This document shows positions 746 through 6,949 of a stretch of 13,555 nucleotides of DNA, piece after piece (within the stretch, counting starts at the first letter, position 1; each line of letters opens with the position of its first letter). This DNA is from a virus (lineage: Duplodnaviria; Heunggongvirae; Uroviricota; Caudoviricetes): positions 1-13,555 of the IMG/VR virus record IMGVR_UViG_3300026224_000027, one strand, 5' to 3'. The position numbers and the translations under genes are program-made. Below the pieces are notes generated by a model. The model did not search any database, was not told where the DNA came from, and worked only from the letters and a program-made list of their open reading frames with translations.

Positions 746-1507
746 TCATGCTCCACTCGATTTCAGTAATCCGCGATAGTCGAGGGCCGCGACACCTGCA
801 TCTATGCGCACCTTCCAGGCGACGCCATCAACAGTAAAGCCCTCCTGCTCCTCAAGATATGGCGTATCAATACCATCAAGATAAGCGACCTCTATCGTGT
901 CCATACCCTTCGCCGCTGCCACATACCACTCCTTGTTATTGGCTTTATCAAGACGTGGCTCAACGATTACCTCCGCCATATCTTTCACCACGTTAATGAT
1001 GCCGGGGTTCTGATTGATAGTGCCCACGCCATCAACCGGAAAGAGTGATGACGATGACAGAATGGCGCGATGTGCGGCAGACTCCAGCGCGGCGGGGACC
1101 AGGACAAATGCAGGGGTAATATTCAGCGAATCGCCGTTAGCGTCTTCCTGGAGGCGCATCAGCTTACGGGCTTCGTTAAGCCCCTCCATGTCCATATCCT
1201 TCGCAATAAGATTTTTATGATCGGCATGGAATAACGCTTTACCATCCGTAAACTTGCCGTTGCTGGTTAACAGGAGATAAACCAGATTGCCAACTGTTCT
1301 GGCAGCTGCGCGTCCCATCGCCATGGGGATTGTAGTTAACTGGGTCAGGTCATCGTTGATAATGGCCTGACGGGTAACGGAAAATATATTCCCGTACGTG
1401 GCCAGCGCAATAGGTACACCTTTATCGCTGGTGGTGATGTATTTATATTCCGCACCTTCCGGTACTTTATCCAGCTTTGAAAAACATTCAGACCAACGCG
1501 CTTTGCT
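746..1507 (-). CDS. Major capsid protein, C-terminal portion (second reading frame of the protease-capsid fusion gene)
   Basis: Frame is open from the stop at 1508-1510 down to 746; reads ...ATYGNIFSVTRQAIINDDLTQLTTIPMAMGRAAART... with capsid-like character. Contiguous with but frame-shifted relative to the 1345..2658 ORF. Confidence 0.5.
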   Translation of the reverse strand, partial: SKARWSECFSKLDKVPEGAEYKYITTSDKGVPIALATYGNIFSVTRQAIINDDLTQLTTIPMAMGRAAARTVGNLVYLLLTSNGKFTDGKALFHADHKNLIAKDMDMEGLNEARKLMRLQEDANGDSLNITPAFVLVPAALESAAHRAILSSSSLFPVDGVGTINQNPGIINVVKDMAEVIVEPRLDKANNKEWYVAAAKGMDTIEVAYLDGIDTPYLEEQEGFTVDGVAWKVRIDAGVAALDYRGLLKSSGA

Positions 1508-2658
1508 TCATGAAAGTTTGAAAGCGAACCGGTACGCGTCCATTTCTGGAACGTTTCGCCGCTGTCCTGCCAGCCTTTCAGTACAGATTTTTCAGCCCCA
1601 CCAGCCAGAATATGAGAAAAATCACTGCTGCTGTGTGTAAAAGCCGCATTAACAACCTGCGAGCGATTAATAAAACCGCTCACAGTGATACCACGATCAA
1701 CCAGTGATGCCTGGGCCATTTCAAAAAGACTCATCATCGCGTAAGGGTTGCCTCGTTCAGGCCGTTCATACCCAAGACGGGAATAAAGCCCCTGACGAAT
1801 TGCATCACCTGTTATGTTTCCGTTTCCAGCATAGATATGAGGCGGGGTATTTTTATTGGATGGCGTGGACTCGCGCCCCAGCTCGTTCAACAGCTTTTCA
1901 CGGGCCATTTCCGGTGTACATGATGCATCTTCCAGACACGCCATTTTGATCCCGTCGTAACGACTGCCGAACAGGCTAAACACTTCACTTATTCCATTGA
2001 TGCGCTTCTGTTCATTACCAGCAATGTTTGCCGCTCCCTGTGGCGGTGTAATCATTCCTTTAATGGTTTCCGGCATATGTAAAAAATCTCCTGTGCGTTT
2101 CGATTCAATTCGCGCCATTGCTCTGACGGATGGCAACAATTCATCAGCAAAACCGTGCTTAAGGCATTCTTTCCCATCCATCCAGGTTTCATCCTCCAGC
2201 ATGGCGGTAATTTCCTGTGCTGATTTGCCCGTTTTTCTGGCATAAGCAGGGATTAACACGGTTTCCACCTTATCCAGCAAATCAGCATAATCACGCATAT
2301 CGCCAGCATTTCCGCCAGAGATCCCCCACGGTTTATGGATCATCATCATGGCGTTCTCCGGCATCACTACACGATCGCCAGCCATTGCGACCACCGAAGC
2401 CATTGAAGCCGCAACACCATCGATATAAACCGTAATGTCTGCCGGATGATTCCGTAGCAGGTTATAGATGGCGATGCCTTCAAACACATCACCACCTGGT
2501 GAATGGATCCTCAGATTGATATGTGAAACATCGCCAAGGGCTTTCAGGTCTTCCGCGAACTGCTTTGCAGTAACACCGAAGCCGCCAATCTCCTCATAGA
2601 TAGATATATCCGCCGCTCCGCGAACATCCGCCGCCTTAATGGTGTACCAGCGATTCAT
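1345..2658 (-). CDS. ClpP-family (S14) prohead protease domain fused to N-terminal part of major capsid protein; apparent frameshift near its 3' end
   Basis: N-terminal about 185 aa carry ClpP-like motifs: GVAASMAS (Ser), MIHKP (His), SPGGDV. The remainder is capsid-like. The last about 50 aa of this frame look non-native where the second frame (746..1507) is open. Confidence 0.65.
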   Translation of the reverse strand: MNRWYTIKAADVRGAADISIYEEIGGFGVTAKQFAEDLKALGDVSHINLRIHSPGGDVFEGIAIYNLLRNHPADITVYIDGVAASMASVVAMAGDRVVMPENAMMMIHKPWGISGGNAGDMRDYADLLDKVETVLIPAYARKTGKSAQEITAMLEDETWMDGKECLKHGFADELLPSVRAMARIESKRTGDFLHMPETIKGMITPPQGAANIAGNEQKRINGISEVFSLFGSRYDGIKMACLEDASCTPEMAREKLLNELGRESTPSNKNTPPHIYAGNGNITGDAIRQGLYSRLGYERPERGNPYAMMSLFEMAQASLVDRGITVSGFINRSQVVNAAFTHSSSDFSHILAGGAEKSVLKGWQDSGETFQKWTRTGSLSNFHEAKRVGLNVFQSWIKYRKVRNINTSPPAIKVYLLRWPRTGIYFPLPVRPLSTMT

Positions 2659-2864: not shown

Positions 2865-2965
2865 AGCAACTTCCTCTGACTGACTAAACTATGCACATTA
2901 TTGATCGATAAAAGTGGTAAATAAATATATTTCTATCATAAAAACAGATTAATTAGATTCAGACA

Positions 2966-2989
2966 CAAAAAAGCCGGATTTCTCCGGCT
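2966..2989 (-). terminator. Putative intrinsic terminator downstream of replication operon/ori
   Basis: Minus-strand hairpin AGCCGGA-(GAAA)-TCCGGCT followed by TTTTT (plus A-run 2967-2971). Confidence 0.4.
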
Positions 2990-3125
2990 TCTGTCACTCG
3001 TTGCTTAAAACGGTATGTTATCCCCGTACGGATCATCATTCCCCGCCTGTTGTTTTGGTGTGCTTCGCTGTCATAGGCTTTATCTCACAGCAGTAAATTA
3101 AAATTTTTGCGTTTTAACCCTTCAA

Positions 3126-3361: not shown

Positions 3362-5194
3362 TTAATTTTTGCTATCGTCATTAGTGACCGATACACATGA
3401 TGGCATCCAGTCTTCTGATTCCTCCGTCAGTGTCACGTTTGAACGCAAACCGTGTTTCGTTTTCCGTTTCATATACTCCCTGCCATATTCCGCCATTGCC
3501 CCCGGCATATCTTTACCGAAGCGCGTCAGTGTTACAGGTTTACCAAACCCATGTGCCCTCATATAAGCCAGATAGGCATGATAGAGATACCTGCGTGGGC
3601 TGAATGGCACAATTTCAGCATTACCCACTAACAGGCCATCACACATTACCGACGCCATGAGATAGCCGCAGAAGTCCACCAGCGAATCCCCCTCTCGCTT
3701 TATCGCCAGTGCTTCTTCAGATTTCTGCTGCTCATATAACAGGCGTCTGGCTTCGTCCTGGTCAGCAAACCGTGTAAGCAGATGGCGAATCACTACCGCC
3801 AGCTCACCTTCTATTTTTTCCGCCAGCATTGGATCACGTTCGTTCTCCGGTACAACTTCCGAAAAATTGAATATCACCCGACGACGTGAGATCCCCCCGC
3901 TGCGGTCACTGAATGACATGGCGTTATTGTTAACCGCCAGCACTACTGCCGGAATACGCGTTGAGTAGGGGGCTTTGTGTTTCGGGTCAATTGCCACCTT
4001 GTCACCGCCTGTAATAGCCTTAATCCCTGCCCCATCACCAGCGTAGCGGGTCATATCCGGCATGATAATCAGCGAAAAGCCAACCACTAACGCGCGTTCC
4101 CTTGCATCTTCCAGCGCCTTCATGCTTGCCGATACTGTGTTGGCCTTACCCGCCAGCATGGTGCAAATCTCCGCCATCACGCTTTTACCACTTCCCCCTG
4201 GACCTGTTACCTCAATGAATAACTGCCAGTCGTACCGGTTCGCCAGCACCATGAATAATGCAGCCAGTACGCGATCCGCCTTGCGGTCATTCTCAGCCAC
4301 CGAACGGCGTAACCACTTCCAGAAATTCGGCGCATGTGTTGCCAGCGTTTCCCCCTCTGCTGGTGGGCTGAAAGGTAATTCACTGGCAATTAACAACCAG
4401 TCGTTTTTGTTATGCTCCCGAAAATTACCTGTTCTGGTATCAAATACCCCGTTACTGAATCCAATCAGGTTACGGGCTGTATTCCCCATTACAGGCAAAC
4501 TTAACTTCATGGTATCGACCGCCGATTTAATGGCGTTCTGCGAATAGCTGATCTCCGCATCAATGAAAATCTGTGCCATAGCTCGCTGTAATTCTTTATC
4601 CTGTACTGGCTCCCATACAACGCCGTTGTAATGGTGAACAGTGTCAGAGTCAGCATGAATCGCCAGTTCACCGCCATAATGTGCCAGGAGAACTTCGCCG
4701 CGTTGACTTGCTCCCATCTGGTTAAGCGCCAGTGATGAAGCGTTATCGTCTTTTACCCGCTCTTTTTTCTTTACAGGCAGTTCAACTACCTTTTTCTTTT
4801 CCGCCAGCTCTGCCCGTTCACGTTCCAGATATTCGTGCCAGTTCTCCCGTTTCTGGCTGTGCATTCCTTCAGGATAATAATCAGCATCCCTGACACCTGC
4901 CGCTGCCAGTTTCTGCCCGATGGTATTAACAAGCACCGGACGCAATAACCCCGCCTGATAGAGACGCACGCGATAGCGTCCGTCCGGTACGATTTGCAGG
5001 TTGTCCAGTTCGGCAAGTTGTTGCTCTCCAAGCCAGACAGGTGGCACGTTATCGCCTGCCAGTCGCCCGTCCTGTTCCTGCCACTGCTTCGCATGTGCCC
5101 ACGCATCACTACCCGCAAAAATGATGACTTCCGTCATTTTGTCACGCGGCTGGTGTTTTAAATTTGGCGCTTTTTTCATTTCTGCTCTCTCCAC
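3362..5194 (-). CDS. Replication initiator: phage/plasmid primase-helicase, P4/D5 family (Walker A NTPase)
   Basis: 610 aa; Walker A motif GPGGSGKS and a downstream hydrophobic beta-strand (LVVGFSLIIMPD) typical of the P4-alpha C-terminal NTPase family. Alternative start at the ATG 5179 forms an ATGA overlap with the upstream 99-aa gene. Confidence 0.7.
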   Translation of the reverse strand: MERAEMKKAPNLKHQPRDKMTEVIIFAGSDAWAHAKQWQEQDGRLAGDNVPPVWLGEQQLAELDNLQIVPDGRYRVRLYQAGLLRPVLVNTIGQKLAAAGVRDADYYPEGMHSQKRENWHEYLERERAELAEKKKVVELPVKKKERVKDDNASSLALNQMGASQRGEVLLAHYGGELAIHADSDTVHHYNGVVWEPVQDKELQRAMAQIFIDAEISYSQNAIKSAVDTMKLSLPVMGNTARNLIGFSNGVFDTRTGNFREHNKNDWLLIASELPFSPPAEGETLATHAPNFWKWLRRSVAENDRKADRVLAALFMVLANRYDWQLFIEVTGPGGSGKSVMAEICTMLAGKANTVSASMKALEDARERALVVGFSLIIMPDMTRYAGDGAGIKAITGGDKVAIDPKHKAPYSTRIPAVVLAVNNNAMSFSDRSGGISRRRVIFNFSEVVPENERDPMLAEKIEGELAVVIRHLLTRFADQDEARRLLYEQQKSEEALAIKREGDSLVDFCGYLMASVMCDGLLVGNAEIVPFSPRRYLYHAYLAYMRAHGFGKPVTLTRFGKDMPGAMAEYGREYMKRKTKHGLRSNVTLTEESEDWMPSCVSVTNDDSKN

Positions 5195-5475
5195 GCGGCA
5201 ATCATGTTTTTCAGTTCCTGTAGTTTTTTATCAACATCCATACATGACACATGATTATTTCTGGAAAGCGGGATTTCCCGCCTGAATCTGCTAATAAAGA
5301 TCTCCACGTTCAGCGAACTATGAAATGAATAGCCATCACGAATAAAATACACACGGTCAAACATCAGTTCTTTTACCGTTACTCTGTTACCGTTCTTATC
5401 CAGATAAATAGCGCCGGGGATAATTTTGGGGTGTGCATAACCGCTGGCAGTCAAGCCAGATAAATATGTTCTCAT
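5176..5475 (-). CDS. Hypothetical protein (99 aa)
   Basis: Stop overlaps the start of the replication gene (ATGA at 5176-5179); compact operon context. No recognisable motif. Confidence 0.45.
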   Translation of the reverse strand: MRTYLSGLTASGYAHPKIIPGAIYLDKNGNRVTVKELMFDRVYFIRDGYSFHSSLNVEIFISRFRREIPLSRNNHVSCMDVDKKLQELKNMIAAWREQK

Positions 5476-5481
5476 GATTAT

Positions 5482-5802
5482 TTATCCCCGATTTGAATCA
5501 GTATTCGCTTTCTTTATGGCATTTAATGCATCTGCGGCATTTTCAATGGTGCACCGTAACGAAATATCAAACTGCCCAAGCATTGCCAGTAACAAACCGA
5601 TATTACCCATATCAATGCGCATAGCCTTTTCGTCATAGTCCTCATTTTCTGACGCATGCCACATCAGGCTACCAATTGACGCAATACCCATTGATATATT
5701 GTCAGTAGCCCCATCCGCAGCGGAATAAACCTTTTTAGCAATATCATGCTCACAGTTAAAATGCGGATTAATCAGGTACTGGTAATTTGACATATCAGGC
5801 AT
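5482..5802 (-). CDS. Hypothetical protein (106 aa)
   Basis: Start ATG (5802) lies 2 nt before the TGA of the upstream 67-aa gene; 6-nt gap to the next gene. No recognisable motif. Confidence 0.45.
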   Translation of the reverse strand: MPDMSNYQYLINPHFNCEHDIAKKVYSAADGATDNISMGIASIGSLMWHASENEDYDEKAMRIDMGNIGLLLAMLGQFDISLRCTIENAADALNAIKKANTDSNRG

Positions 5803-5998
5803 GGCACACCCCCTGACGAATACGGGCGGCGAATATCATCACGCAGCCAGCCGGGGATTGCTGGCGTGCTTCCTGTTCGCTGGTGGCCACGATGTGAATC
5901 ACGCGCGGTTGTGCCGTGCTCAGGGCGATAAAACGCCAGATGAATTTATTCAGGTTGTGCGAGTCCCGCCCTTGCGGGTGTGTGGTATGATTTAACAT
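5795..5998 (-). CDS. Hypothetical small protein (67 aa), first gene of leftward operon
   Basis: Internal Met of the 306-aa track ORF (MLNHTTHPQ...), with GAGGT about 6 nt upstream. The longer ORF upstream of this Met runs through promoter, operator and terminator elements and is judged spurious. Confidence 0.4.
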   Translation of the reverse strand: MLNHTTHPQGRDSHNLNKFIWRFIALSTAQPRVIHIVATSEQEARQQSPAGCVMIFAARIRQGVCHA

Positions 5999-6094
5999 AG
6001 CTACCTCGATACTTCTGCTATCGTTGGTGGTTAGAAGCCCGGTTAGTGTTAGCGCACTGCCGGGTTTCGTCGTTTCTGCACCTTGCATCAACAA

Positions 6095-6170
6095 GGTGTT
6101 AAACACCAATTTAAGCCTAGGTGTTAAACACGTCAAGTGTTGAACACTTATTTTTTTTCCTGCATACTGC
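6095..6170. promoter_or_regulatory. Divergent promoter region with three 13-bp palindromic operators
   Basis: Operators GGTGTT-A-AACACC (6095-6107), GGTGTT-A-AACAC (6120-6131), AGTGTT-G-AACACT (6136-6148). Rightward promoter: -35 TTGAAC (6141-6146), 17-bp spacer, -10 CATACT (6164-6169). Leftward promoter on minus strand: -35 TTGACG (6136..6131), 17-bp spacer, -10 TAAATT (6113..6108). Confidence 0.45.
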
Positions 6171-6197
6171 ATTTGTTTTTTGTAAGGAGTACACAAC

Positions 6198-6377
6198 ATG
6201 GCGACAAAAGCAGTAAACGCAAAATCACAAACAGTTGCGGCAAGGGTTCCGCATGAAGTTATGAACAATGTTGAGGCGGTAAAAATGCCTGGTGAAAGTA
6301 CAGGGCAGTTTGTAACAGCAGCATTAAAGCGAGAAGTTGAATACCGCCAGCGTCGCAAGGCCAAAGAGCAGGAGTAA
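6198..6377 (+). CDS. Small ribbon-helix-helix-like DNA-binding protein (59 aa), putative island regulator; absent from ORF track
   Basis: AAGGAG 8 nt upstream of the ATG. Sequence MATKAVNAKSQTVAARVPHEVMNNVEAVKMPGESTGQFVTAALKREVEYRQRRKAKEQE shows a strand-helix-turn-helix pattern reminiscent of Arc/CopG RHH proteins. Sits directly beside the operator cluster. Confidence 0.45.
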   Translation: MATKAVNAKSQTVAARVPHEVMNNVEAVKMPGESTGQFVTAALKREVEYRQRRKAKEQE

Positions 6378-6434
6378 CCATCACCAGCGCCGTGGTGCGG
6401 TGAACTGTGGCGCACAGGGTTACAGGTATCTACG

Positions 6435-6614
6435 ATGACTGACAAATCATTAAAGAAATTATCCTCATCCAAGAAAAAACAACGCAAAAATGCGGTAAAC
6501 GAACATGAACCGGAGAGATTCGCACCATGTGCGTTTATCCTTGAGAAGTACCTTAAAGAGTATTCTAGGAAAATACGCTCATTGCAGGCATGGCAGCGAA
6601 TCGAGCCAGACTGA
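6435..6614 (+). CDS. Hypothetical basic small protein (59 aa); absent from ORF track
   Basis: ATG-initiated ORF (MTDKSLKKLSSSKKKQRKNAVNEHEPERF...) downstream of the RHH gene and followed by a strong terminator; RBS weak. Confidence 0.3.
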   Translation: MTDKSLKKLSSSKKKQRKNAVNEHEPERFAPCAFILEKYLKEYSRKIRSLQAWQRIEPD

Positions 6615-6678
6615 TAGCATTGCCCACTAGCCGACAACCTGGTATTCTGGATATGCTCAAGTTTAGTGTTATGCCACT

Positions 6679-6706
6679 GGCGACCGCCCCCGGTCGCCTT
6701 TGTTTT
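6679..6706 (+). terminator. Rho-independent terminator ending the rightward small-ORF transcript
   Basis: GGCGACCG-(CCCC)-CGGTCGCC 8-bp GC stem followed by TTTGTTTT; lies between convergent ORF 6435..6614 and alpA. Confidence 0.6.
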
Positions 6707-6724
6707 ATGTGTCATAGCTCCCCC

Positions 6725-6949
6725 CTAGGCTGCCTTACCTGAATTAACGCGGTCACGGCTTTGCACCCAGTCCATAACTTCGGAAAGCAACCAGCCTACA
6801 GAACGCCCCCCAAGATTACGGCGAGACGGAAAGCCCCCTTTCTTCTCCAGTTCGTAGCGTGTAGTACGGCTGACGCCTGTTAACTTACGACATTCATCCT
6901 CACGAATTACGCGATCTGTTAGTGATTGAAATTGTGTATTTTGATTCAT
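6725..6949 (-). CDS. alpA: AlpA-family transcriptional regulator (excisionase-like HTH)
   Basis: 74 aa; C-terminal segment LGGRSVGWLLSEVMDWVQSR resembles the AlpA conserved region (GxxSVGWxExEIxxWxxxR); positioned downstream of int in the same orientation, as in P4-like elements and Gram-negative PICIs. Confidence 0.75.
   Translation of the reverse strand: MNQNTQFQSLTDRVIREDECRKLTGVSRTTRYELEKKGGFPSRRNLGGRSVGWLLSEVMDWVQSRDRVNSGKAA

Follow-up and report, generated by a model that had tools for sequence, protein, structure and literature searches.

We analyzed a 13,555-nt stretch of DNA (IMG/VR record IMGVR_UViG_3300026224_000027; hereafter 'the window') that, judged by its genes, is a phage satellite of Escherichia coli, and in particular the three small genes, here called g1, g2 and g3, that lie in front of its primase-helicase gene; all four genes are read on the minus strand. 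The three small genes fairly probably constitute the gated head of a replication operon built on the plan of P4 and P1. The first of them, g1, is an almost certain member of the Icd/Kil family. It lies opposite a candidate antisense RNA, behind a promoter with candidate operators, and is nested in phase in a long stop-free frame that begins just after the regulatory gene alpA. By its relationships, the module is a variation on the Icd/Kil leader design of P4 and P1, not a new kind of system; its antisense RNA, the hypervariable loop of that RNA, the unconstrained translatable frame and the repressor/operator specificities appear to be undescribed.

Three coupled genes in front of the primase gene

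The initial annotation had described three minus-strand open reading frames (ORFs) of 67, 106 and 99 aa, translationally coupled to each other and, through an ATGA overlap, to the primase gene. Rereading of the coordinates and junctions bore this out. The genes g1 (67 aa, 5795–5998) and g2 (106 aa, 5482–5802) overlap by 8 nt (ATGCCTGA), a gap of 6 nt (TAAATAATCATG) separates g2 from g3 (99 aa, 5176–5475), and the stop codon of g3 (TGA, 5178–5176) forms an ATGA with the start codon of the primase gene (ATG, 5179–5177). A copy of positions 5100–6800 that is 100% identical is carried by E. coli SCU-123, and the NCBI Prokaryotic Genome Annotation Pipeline (PGAP) calls the identical four genes and junctions there, with the primase start at the ATGA overlap. 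The small genes therefore do head an operon that ends in a primase-helicase gene, as had been proposed, and the coupled chain closes with the primase as its replicase.

Related loci were collected in two sets. The set anchored on g1 held 85 loci, namely the window, 80 IMG/VR contigs, two E. coli islands and two species-representative genomes, the latter being the only two loci that a scan of such genomes yielded. The set anchored on g3 held 80 loci, including five distant members of the DUF4222 family, to which g3 belongs (see below), at 37–42% identity. In related loci, the ratio of nonsynonymous to synonymous polymorphism (pN/pS) was 0.18 for g1, 0.34 for g2 and 0.33 for g3, and third codon positions varied most. 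A Shine-Dalgarno sequence was kept at each junction, that of g2 being embedded in the C-terminal codons of g1. Given that pN/pS values below 1, conserved Shine-Dalgarno sequences at the junctions and a recurrent chain are more than chance ORFs would show, we conclude from these comparisons that g1, g2 and g3 are genuine genes, each under purifying selection. Both conservation and a coding signature were thus present in homologous islands.

The initial annotation had recognized no motif in any of the three products, which does not hold for g1. Against the NCBIfam model NF033153 ('host cell division inhibitor Icd-like', cut-off 25) g1 scored 71 bits (E = 6e-20), and PGAP named it 'host cell division inhibitor Icd-like protein'. 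In blastp searches it aligned with P1 Icd (43% identity over 42 aa, E = 4e-7) and with P4 Kil (28% over 50 aa, E = 7e-4), the P4 match being the last 65 residues of the former 'cI ORF', which we take to be Kil. The three proteins are of similar length (g1, 67 aa; P1 Icd, 73 aa; P4 Kil, 65 aa), and each is encoded by a small first cistron coupled to the next gene, by an 8-nt overlap with a GGGGG Shine-Dalgarno sequence in the window, by 8 nt in P4 and by ATGA in P1. With a grand average of hydropathy of -0.22 and a pI of 10.6, g1 is not a hydrophobic membrane peptide. Its PHROG label, 'transcriptional repressor', appears to descend from the annotation of the P4 cI protein, which we presume to be obsolete.

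Because of this homology and of the report on a cell-death system of an ECOR61 prophage (bioRxiv 10.1101/2023.04.06.535777), g1 is probably a cell-division inhibitor or toxin; the identity of that system with the present module is taken from its description alone. Of the literature searched, only annotation lists and the ECOR61 study contained the terms 'Icd-like' and 'DUF4222'.

A candidate antisense RNA opposite the g1 leader

The initial annotation had overlooked both a putative antisense RNA and the promoter/operator region that would control g1–g3. The RNA, of about 84 nt, would be encoded on the plus strand at 5999–6082 and is complementary to nearly the whole 5' untranslated region (5'UTR) of g1, including the Shine-Dalgarno sequence (GAGG, 6007–6004). 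It comprises two stem-loops. SL1 (5999–6032) has invariant stems, contains the anti-Shine-Dalgarno sequence and carries a hypervariable 7-nt loop, of which 14 variants were found between the invariant stems. SL2 (6034–6068), a hairpin rich in GC, has a U-rich tail behind it; the arms of the hairpin change compensatorily, and one version is entirely different in sequence. The two hairpins folded on the plus strand in every one of 46–55 unique variants. In an alignment built from sequence only, 94.5% of cells paired, as compared with 34–51% when the partners were slid, 11 pairs changed on both sides, and none of 500 shuffles reached the observed values. The z-score was -4.7. We consider it highly probable that a structured antisense RNA occupies this position.

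The two strands were clearly unequal. The minimum free energy was -35.4 kcal/mol for the antisense and -23.2 kcal/mol for the sense RNA, and in all 46 variants the antisense RNA was the more stable, by about 12 kcal/mol. G·U pairs numbered 227 in the antisense and 17 in the sense orientation, and near-invariant G·U pairs (columns 2–33 and 4–31, and several in SL2) become A·C mismatches in the sense mRNA. Taken together, the stability gap, the G·U asymmetry and the A·C mismatches indicate that the functional strand is the antisense (plus) strand.

A putative extended -10 element for this RNA (TGgTATGAT, 5983–5991, plus strand) lies inside codons 3–6 of g1. The block CCGCCCTTGCGGGTGTGTGGTATGATT was invariant in 35 unique sequences, including that of a Pantoea locus whose protein is 45% identical, and variants of the -10 hexamer (TATAAT, TATTAT, TATAGT) retain the T-A...T positions. 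Codons 1–18 of g1 changed 9, 5 and 3 times at the first, second and third positions, so that the third was the least variable, as compared with 10, 13 and 29 times in codons 19–67; this inverted pattern is the signature of a promoter embedded in coding sequence. We infer that the RNA is transcribed and that it represses g1. When the pair is compared with type I toxin–antitoxin systems, the RNA structure and its position over the g1 ribosome-binding site resemble theirs, and g1 would, by homology, be the putative toxin. An invariant GC-rich inverted repeat (CCCGCCCTTGCGGG, 5965–5978) was also found inside codons 7–11 of g1, just upstream of the putative -10; it occupies the usual place of a -35 and may either bind a protein or form a hairpin in the mRNA.

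A covariance model of the RNA found one copy abutting the start of the Icd-like gene in every island searched and no copy in P4 or P1. A diverged copy, with a different SL1 sequence but again a G·U-rich stem, was present in a Klebsiella-type capsid-forming island (L088) deposited as 'phage vB_KppS-Ant'. We did not find the sequence of this RNA in the literature searched. The sole Rfam match in the leader was to symR (RF01809; plus strand, 5999–6071, 33.6 bits, E = 5e-4). This score is far under the gathering threshold of 61, and the match did not recur in eight variant loci with a different SL2; we therefore regard it as a likeness of architecture, not as membership of the SymR family. A C4/CI RNA (RF01695) upstream of g1 was also considered and rejected, since none was found in the window at the gathering score or at E ≤ 5, nor in two related islands (L002 and L003), although the positive controls in P4 (74.9 bits) and P1 (68.8 bits) were detected by Rfam.

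Three related islands had more complex leaders. In L054 (4001–4440), a first Icd-like gene with the cis-antisense hairpins is followed by a P4-type c4-a1b1/isrK/C4 leader (C4 RNA, 72 bits) and then by a second Icd-like gene. In L002 (7340–7423) and L046 (3172–3256), a second, diverged copy of the antisense RNA (57 and 47 bits, respectively) lies about 0.8 kb upstream of the first, which suggests a tandem duplication of the regulatory module. These last two loci also have the longest open frames, of 541–586 codons.

A promoter with candidate operators and a divergent repressor-like gene

A promoter scan found a sigma-70-type promoter (TTGACG, 17 nt, TAAATT; 6108–6136, minus strand) from which the predicted 5'UTR of g1 would be about 100 nt long. 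Of 84 loci, 70 had the loose pattern TTGAC, 16–18 nt, YAnnnT at an equal distance and the other 14 had TTGAA; in the matching promoters the -10 ended 104–117 nt from the ATG. Three candidate operators, GTGTT(T/C)AACAC, at 6147–6137, 6131–6121 and 6107–6095 flank or overlap the -35, the -10 and the start site. Given that a promoter and operators lie about 100 nt upstream, the short g1 would be the first cistron of its own regulated transcript.

Each island type has its own type of repeat at the equivalent positions. Divergent from g1 lies a gene of the YlcI/YnfO family (59 aa, 6198–6377, plus strand; NF041551, 2e-16), which is called by PGAP and whose codon-position pattern fits the ylcI frame. 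The type of palindrome covaries one-to-one with residues 11–20 of the encoded protein: at least 12 operator types were found across the islands, each paired with its own YlcI variant (for example TVAARV, SLTARI, KLEARV or ALKARV). This covariation identifies a candidate repressor, which looks ribbon-helix-helix-like and probably acts on the promoter of g1, g2, g3 and the primase gene. The ylcI gene and the three palindromes together (6095–6377) look like an immunity region. Some island types have no YlcI, so that a different repressor must act there.

A second plus-strand ORF (6435–6614, 59 aa), very basic (pI 9.9) and without a family match, lies between ylcI and a terminator, and is probably co-transcribed with ylcI. 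This intrinsic terminator of the plus-strand unit (6679–6708) has an 8-bp stem with seven G–C pairs and the tail TTTGTTTTAT. It has no T-tract on the minus strand, and alpA transcripts can therefore read through it.

A long translatable frame that contains g1

On the minus strand, g1 is contained in phase in a stop-free frame of 306 codons (5795–6715). Upstream of it lies alpA (6725–6949, minus strand), which encodes a regulator of the AlpA/Vis family (PF05930, 5e-16) and is separated from g1 by a leader of about 730 nt. The ATG of the long frame (6715) lies 9 nt past the alpA stop, after a Shine-Dalgarno sequence (tagGGGGGAGctATG), and the start motif (alpA stop-GGGGGAG-N2-3-ATG) is conserved together with several different alpA C-termini. 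From there the frame crosses the plus-strand terminator, which encodes its 'conserved N-terminus', the two plus-strand genes, the promoter and operators and the antisense-RNA region.

When 240 codons in phase with g1 were examined, no stop occurred in 47 of the 65 unique upstream sequences, or in 11 of the 19 sequence types, whereas each of the other two frames had stops (about 15 and 14, respectively). One or two stop-free segments sufficed to cover the 720 nt upstream in 61 of the 65 sequences; the opposite strand mostly took four or five, and shuffled sequences four to ten. Outside the opposite-strand genes, substitutions were spread evenly over the three codon positions (59/53/43, 60/53/52 and 16/21/20), which argues that the amino-acid sequence of the long frame is unconstrained. 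On this evidence, selection preserves the translatability of the long frame and not its product. Such a combination is an unusual evolutionary signature, and we know of no example of it apart from P4.

The 306-aa product was also considered as a conventional protein and rejected, because it lacks a codon-position signature and, in the window, any Pfam domain; this rejection does not extend to its being a translated frame. In one related island (L066), the long frame starts with a genuine Bro-N domain (54 bits), so that in some islands it is at least part of a real translated gene. Other islands, such as L003, keep only a C-terminal remnant of Bro-N (KSAPLPERLCEQLTYC) upstream of the Icd-like gene, and PGAP annotates partial pseudogenes there.

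Gene callers often pick longer forms of Icd-like genes, of 95–118 aa and, in L088, of 324 aa. The initial annotation had likewise raised the possibility that the 306-aa frame is the true product. The frame is indeed conserved and coupled to alpA, but g1 is real as well and nested within it: given that g1 has its own promoter, Shine-Dalgarno sequence and candidate antisense RNA and that the long frame is open, the relation appears to be one of nesting and not of either/or. This nesting also explains the conflicting calls of 'Icd-like' genes (67 versus 95–324 aa).

A comparable frame exists in P4, where an open run of 199 codons, preceded by GGGGGT, begins at an ATGA shared with the end of vis and continues in phase into kil across P_LE, seqA, CI and seqC. 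We take this frame to be eta. Translation of eta from the P_LL transcript, in work of Forti et al. in 1999, is said to make read-through of a Rho-dependent terminator insensitive to immunity; the two frames were compared here at the level of sequence layout only.

Gene order in related islands and the roles of g2 and g3

Gene order was fixed throughout the 85 and 80 loci: an Icd-like gene, a slot, a DUF4222 gene and a replicase gene. In the 85 g1-anchored loci the Icd-like gene always came first. The slot then held between one and five small genes, joined by overlaps of -4, -8 or -11 nt; these genes fall into about ten mutually unrelated families, none with a Pfam domain. The DUF4222 gene followed after a gap of 4–7 nt. 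The replicase, which was either of the primase type or a RepA-like helicase, came last via an ATGA overlap. The g3-anchored loci, including those of the distant DUF4222 members, had the same order. In these comparisons g1 and g3 form the constant part of the module, and the variable slot between them is filled by g2 in some islands and by other genes elsewhere. The initial annotation had called for such a co-occurrence analysis and had noted that this position in satellites often holds helper-interference or replication-accessory functions. Both parts of that suggestion find a counterpart here, as the middle slot behaves like an accessory region and the replicase-adjacent g3 like a replication-associated constant.

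Remote homology searches and structure prediction yielded a family for g1 and g3 and none for g2. The g3 product scored 61.1 bits against Pfam DUF4222 (PF13973; gathering score 27), a name also used by PGAP, so that the absence of a motif reported for it earlier has to be revised. Its structural model, a small beta-barrel with a helix, was of low confidence and gave only generic Tudor/SH3-like matches. For g2, the earlier statement stands: no recognizable family and no fold match were found. Searches against Pfam, NCBIfam and PADLOC gave no match, and the sole match was to phrog_15327, of unknown function. An exhaustive HMMER search of 1.84 billion representatives gave 18 matches, of which only about seven were genuine relatives of about 100 aa; the long multi-repeat proteins among them were rejected as artefacts of tetratricopeptide or immunoglobulin-like repeats. 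The g2 product is acidic (pI 4.6), and AlphaFold predicted a helical hairpin (helices 19–51 and 58–104) with a predicted local distance difference test score of 80, for which PDB and BFVD held no informative match. For both g2 and g3, a sequence search of PDB gave nothing significant, and tblastn against 50,697 phage genomes gave no match. Neither g2 nor g3 showed similarity to epsilon, orf151 or orf106 of P4, so that homology to these was rejected, and none of the slot genes matched the epsilon family PF25738. Searches with the PADLOC-DB 2.0 models likewise gave no match for g1, g2, g3, the primase, YlcI, the DUF6387 protein encoded upstream of alpA or the 306-aa frame.

Given that g2 sits at the position of P4 epsilon, it would most likely bind, and act on, a helper-phage or host protein. 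Given that g3 is constant beside either type of replicase, it would most likely be a replication accessory or adaptor. We hold these two roles tentatively, as at best slightly short of an even proposition.

Proposed control of the operon and alternative explanations

We propose the following gating mechanism, which we judge to be just on the probable side. Ribosomes would have to start on g1 in order to reach g2, g3 and the primase gene through the overlapping junctions. In the resting island, YlcI would repress the promoter at 6136–6108 via its type-specific operators, and a constitutive antisense RNA would pair with the g1 5'UTR and Shine-Dalgarno sequence and block the translation of g1. 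This block would spread to g2, g3 and the primase gene through coupling and probably through Rho-dependent polarity, so that the operon would be off; the hypervariable loop of SL1 would prevent cross-regulation between islands in the same cell. Once alpA is transcribed, as might happen on infection by a helper phage, ribosomes would load right after the alpA stop and, moving in the 306-codon frame, would cross the leader into g1, lifting the antisense block and preventing termination, whereupon the operon would fire. Such an override was reported for P4 eta. Of the proteins then made, g2 would act on a helper-phage or host protein and g3 would assist the replicase.

The scheme could be extended to a three-layer immunity switch, in which YlcI repressors of many operator specificities form one layer, the antisense loop serves as an island-specific 'incompatibility' code and the frame is kept open solely to let ribosomes coming from alpA override the block; we regard this extension as speculative and rather doubtful. 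Within it, disturbance of the switch by phage proteins might make the Icd-like leader act as a cell-death effector as well, which we hold in equal doubt, and the slot genes, g2 included, could conceivably be helper- or phage-specific sensors or effectors, a suggestion made with the same reserve.

Several observations weigh against the gated operon as proposed. No good -35 element precedes the putative antisense -10, and in the window the tail after SL2 (GTCGTTTCT) is a weak U-tract that is absent from the terminator-scan list. The third codon positions of ylcI and of the long frame coincide, so that the genes on the opposite strand could by themselves account for some of the stop-free frame. 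In the collected loci g2 always accompanies the window-type g3 subtype and the primase, and it could therefore belong to the replicon instead of being a free accessory gene. In addition, the searches of PDB and BFVD and with HMMER returned no informative homologues or folds for g2 and g3, so that the roles proposed for them are drawn from position only.

Other explanations were weighed against the same evidence. That the operon head serves primarily abortive infection or superinfection exclusion, with a phage protein releasing the Icd-like toxin and replication control being secondary, seems rather unlikely, although this explanation overlaps the gated operon and does not exclude it. It is favored by the resemblance of the variable slot to fast-evolving accessory regions and by the finding of Silas et al. 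that Abc1 of P22 triggers killing of the cell by a P4 prophage, for which upregulation of kil was proposed (bioRxiv 10.1101/2023.04.06.535777). No protein of the window matches a PADLOC defence model, and the module is always coupled to a replicase, within a satellite with integrase, alpA and capsid genes; given this constant coupling, a role in replication is the simplest reading. We think it unlikely that g2 and g3 are helper-interference proteins without a role in satellite replication, as the initial annotation had proposed. P4 does have the helper-directed epsilon at the position of g2, g2 is acidic and helical like many protein-binding inhibitors, and the slot is highly variable. However, g3 is constant whatever the slot or the type of replicase and is coupled to the replicase, which points to a core function and not to a gene engaged in an arms race. 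The two proteins are unlike P4 epsilon (PF25738) and known interference proteins, and neither was found in about 50,000 phage genomes.

Two further explanations concern the leader itself, and both appear very unlikely. If the 306-aa frame were the sole real product, a large Icd-domain protein, then the 67-aa g1 would be an annotation artefact. The absence of stops in most island types, the conserved Shine-Dalgarno sequence and ATG after alpA, the longer gene calls (95–118 aa, or 324 aa in L088) and the Bro-N head in L066 all speak for such a protein. Against it stand the lack of codon-position bias outside the Icd domain, the lack of a Pfam domain in the window, and the course of the frame, which runs antisense through ylcI and crosses a conserved sigma-70 promoter with its operators as well as the antisense-RNA region; moreover, g1 has its own GAGG and a promoter about 100 nt upstream, is of the length of Icd and Kil and is called at 67 aa by PGAP. 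It is similarly improbable that no antisense regulator exists and that the hairpins act in the sense mRNA, by sequestering the ribosome-binding site or as a protein site, or terminate stray plus-strand transcription. DNA palindromes fold on both strands, it is true, and SL1 covers the Shine-Dalgarno region. Yet the differences in stability and in G·U pairing, including the near-invariant pairs that are lost as A·C mismatches in the sense RNA, all favor the antisense strand, the U-rich tail follows SL2 on the plus strand only, and a nucleotide-invariant, promoter-like block lies upstream at the right distance for a plus-strand transcript.

The satellite and its genomic setting

The identical copy in SCU-123 places the DNA of the window in E. 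coli; in that strain, the island lies between thiM and rcnR. The integrase gene (9124–7904) is followed by a gene for a 284-aa DUF6387 protein (7053–7907), which lies between int and alpA; like the other genes of the order given here, both are on the minus strand. Beyond the leader and the three small genes, the primase gene (3362–5179, minus strand) encodes a D5-type helicase as well (D5_N, DUF5906 and Pox_D5; phrog_864, DNA primase, 1e-191). Downstream of it come a 69-aa ORF, the HK97-type genes for a ClpP-like prohead protease and capsid protein (746–2658) and, last in the gene order of the island, a DUF1441 TerS-like gene. Because it combines int, alpA and a primase gene with capsid and packaging genes of its own, the gene set of phage-inducible chromosomal islands (PICIs) and capsid-forming PICIs (cf-PICIs) in an island of about 10–15 kb, the element of the window is, from its gene content, a capsid-forming PICI-type satellite of E. 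coli.

Several features of the element were noted in passing. The DUF6387 gene overlaps the integrase stop by 4 nt, and its product has no PADLOC match. The protease/major capsid fusion is a single coding sequence of 1914 nt in SCU-123 and two ORFs in the window (1345–2658 and 746–1324), where a 1-nt alignment gap splits the gene; this may be a frameshift, a sequencing error or a sign of a decaying island. Between the primase and morphogenesis genes, the window has 154 unrelated bases (2945–3098) where SCU-123 carries about 900 bp that include a HEPN-domain gene (L001, 6092–6999), and this site may be a hotspot for cargo or defence genes. The GC content is a mosaic: g1 and the leader, at 57% GC, are almost the same in many islands, and g2 and g3, at 41% GC, form one haplotype block with the primase gene. 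The int-alpA RNA of Rfam (RF02996) was found between int and alpA in a Pantoea island (L007, 905–973, 45 bits) and not in the window at the gathering score.

A 1.7-kb query around g1 had a partial or full DNA match in 1541 of 5426 complete E. coli genomes, with a maximum of six matching places per genome; the region had no match to phage genomes by blastn. Given this frequency, the Icd-like module would control the replication of a very common class of satellites. Phage satellites of the PICI class move virulence and defence genes, and to our knowledge the silence and firing of Gram-negative PICIs are known only at the level of AlpA. The module offers concrete targets for mutation, namely the RNA of about 84 nt, its 7-nt specificity loop, the operator/repressor pairs and the open frame, and the present results link the module to the phage-triggered cell-death phenotype reported for ECOR61.

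Comparison with known systems

In most descriptions of PICIs and cf-PICIs of E. coli, AlpA is the sole regulator. Known members such as EcCICFT073, EcCIMP1 and the Enterobacter cloacae cf-PICIs share int, alpA and primase genes with the window, and the cf-PICIs also share capsid, protease and TerS genes. 'Icd' and 'YlcI/YnfO' appear among the accessory genes in published PICI annotation tables (PMC13612085, PMC11773190); the parts of these accounts available to us mention no antisense RNA, nested frame or operator/repressor pair upstream of the primase operon. The study of the ECOR61 prophage likewise describes no antisense RNA, nested short gene or satellite role (bioRxiv 10.1101/2023.04.06.535777).

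The SymE/SymR pair (RF01809) also has a two-hairpin RNA of about 77–84 nt opposite the 5' end and ribosome-binding site of a small, non-membrane, toxin-like gene, and the promoter of that RNA lies inside the first codons of the opposed gene, as it putatively does here. It differs in that the symR match of the window stays under the gathering threshold and does not recur, and in that g1 had no match to the SymE family in the general scans run.

The immI region of P1 (c4 RNA, icd, ant1/ant2) is closer. Its small leader cistron icd is homologous to g1 and overlaps ant1 by ATGA; according to the P1 record, icd is 'apparently required for expression of ant'. An antisense RNA targets the icd ribosome-binding region. 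However, the C4 RNA of P1 is processed from the same transcript, the cargo is an antirepressor and not a replicase, and no long in-phase frame precedes icd, where only 11 codons are open.

The left operon of P4 shares more of the plan. An AlpA/Vis gene is followed, from its stop, by a long stop-free frame with a GGGGG Shine-Dalgarno sequence, and this frame contains in phase a Kil/Icd gene of about 65 aa that the next small gene overlaps by 8 nt. The order in P4 is vis, the frame that contains kil, epsilon, orf151, orf106 and the alpha primase gene, and the chain in the window also ends in a primase-helicase gene. The two differ in that epsilon, orf151 and orf106 are unrelated to g2 and g3, in that P4 carries sid, delta and psu where the window carries capsid, protease and TerS genes, and in that kil is under a sense-strand, trans-acting CI RNA (Rfam C4) where the window has a candidate cis-antisense RNA. 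P1 and P4 control icd and kil with C4/CI RNA, and by analogy the candidate antisense RNA may take the place of that RNA in the satellite of the window.

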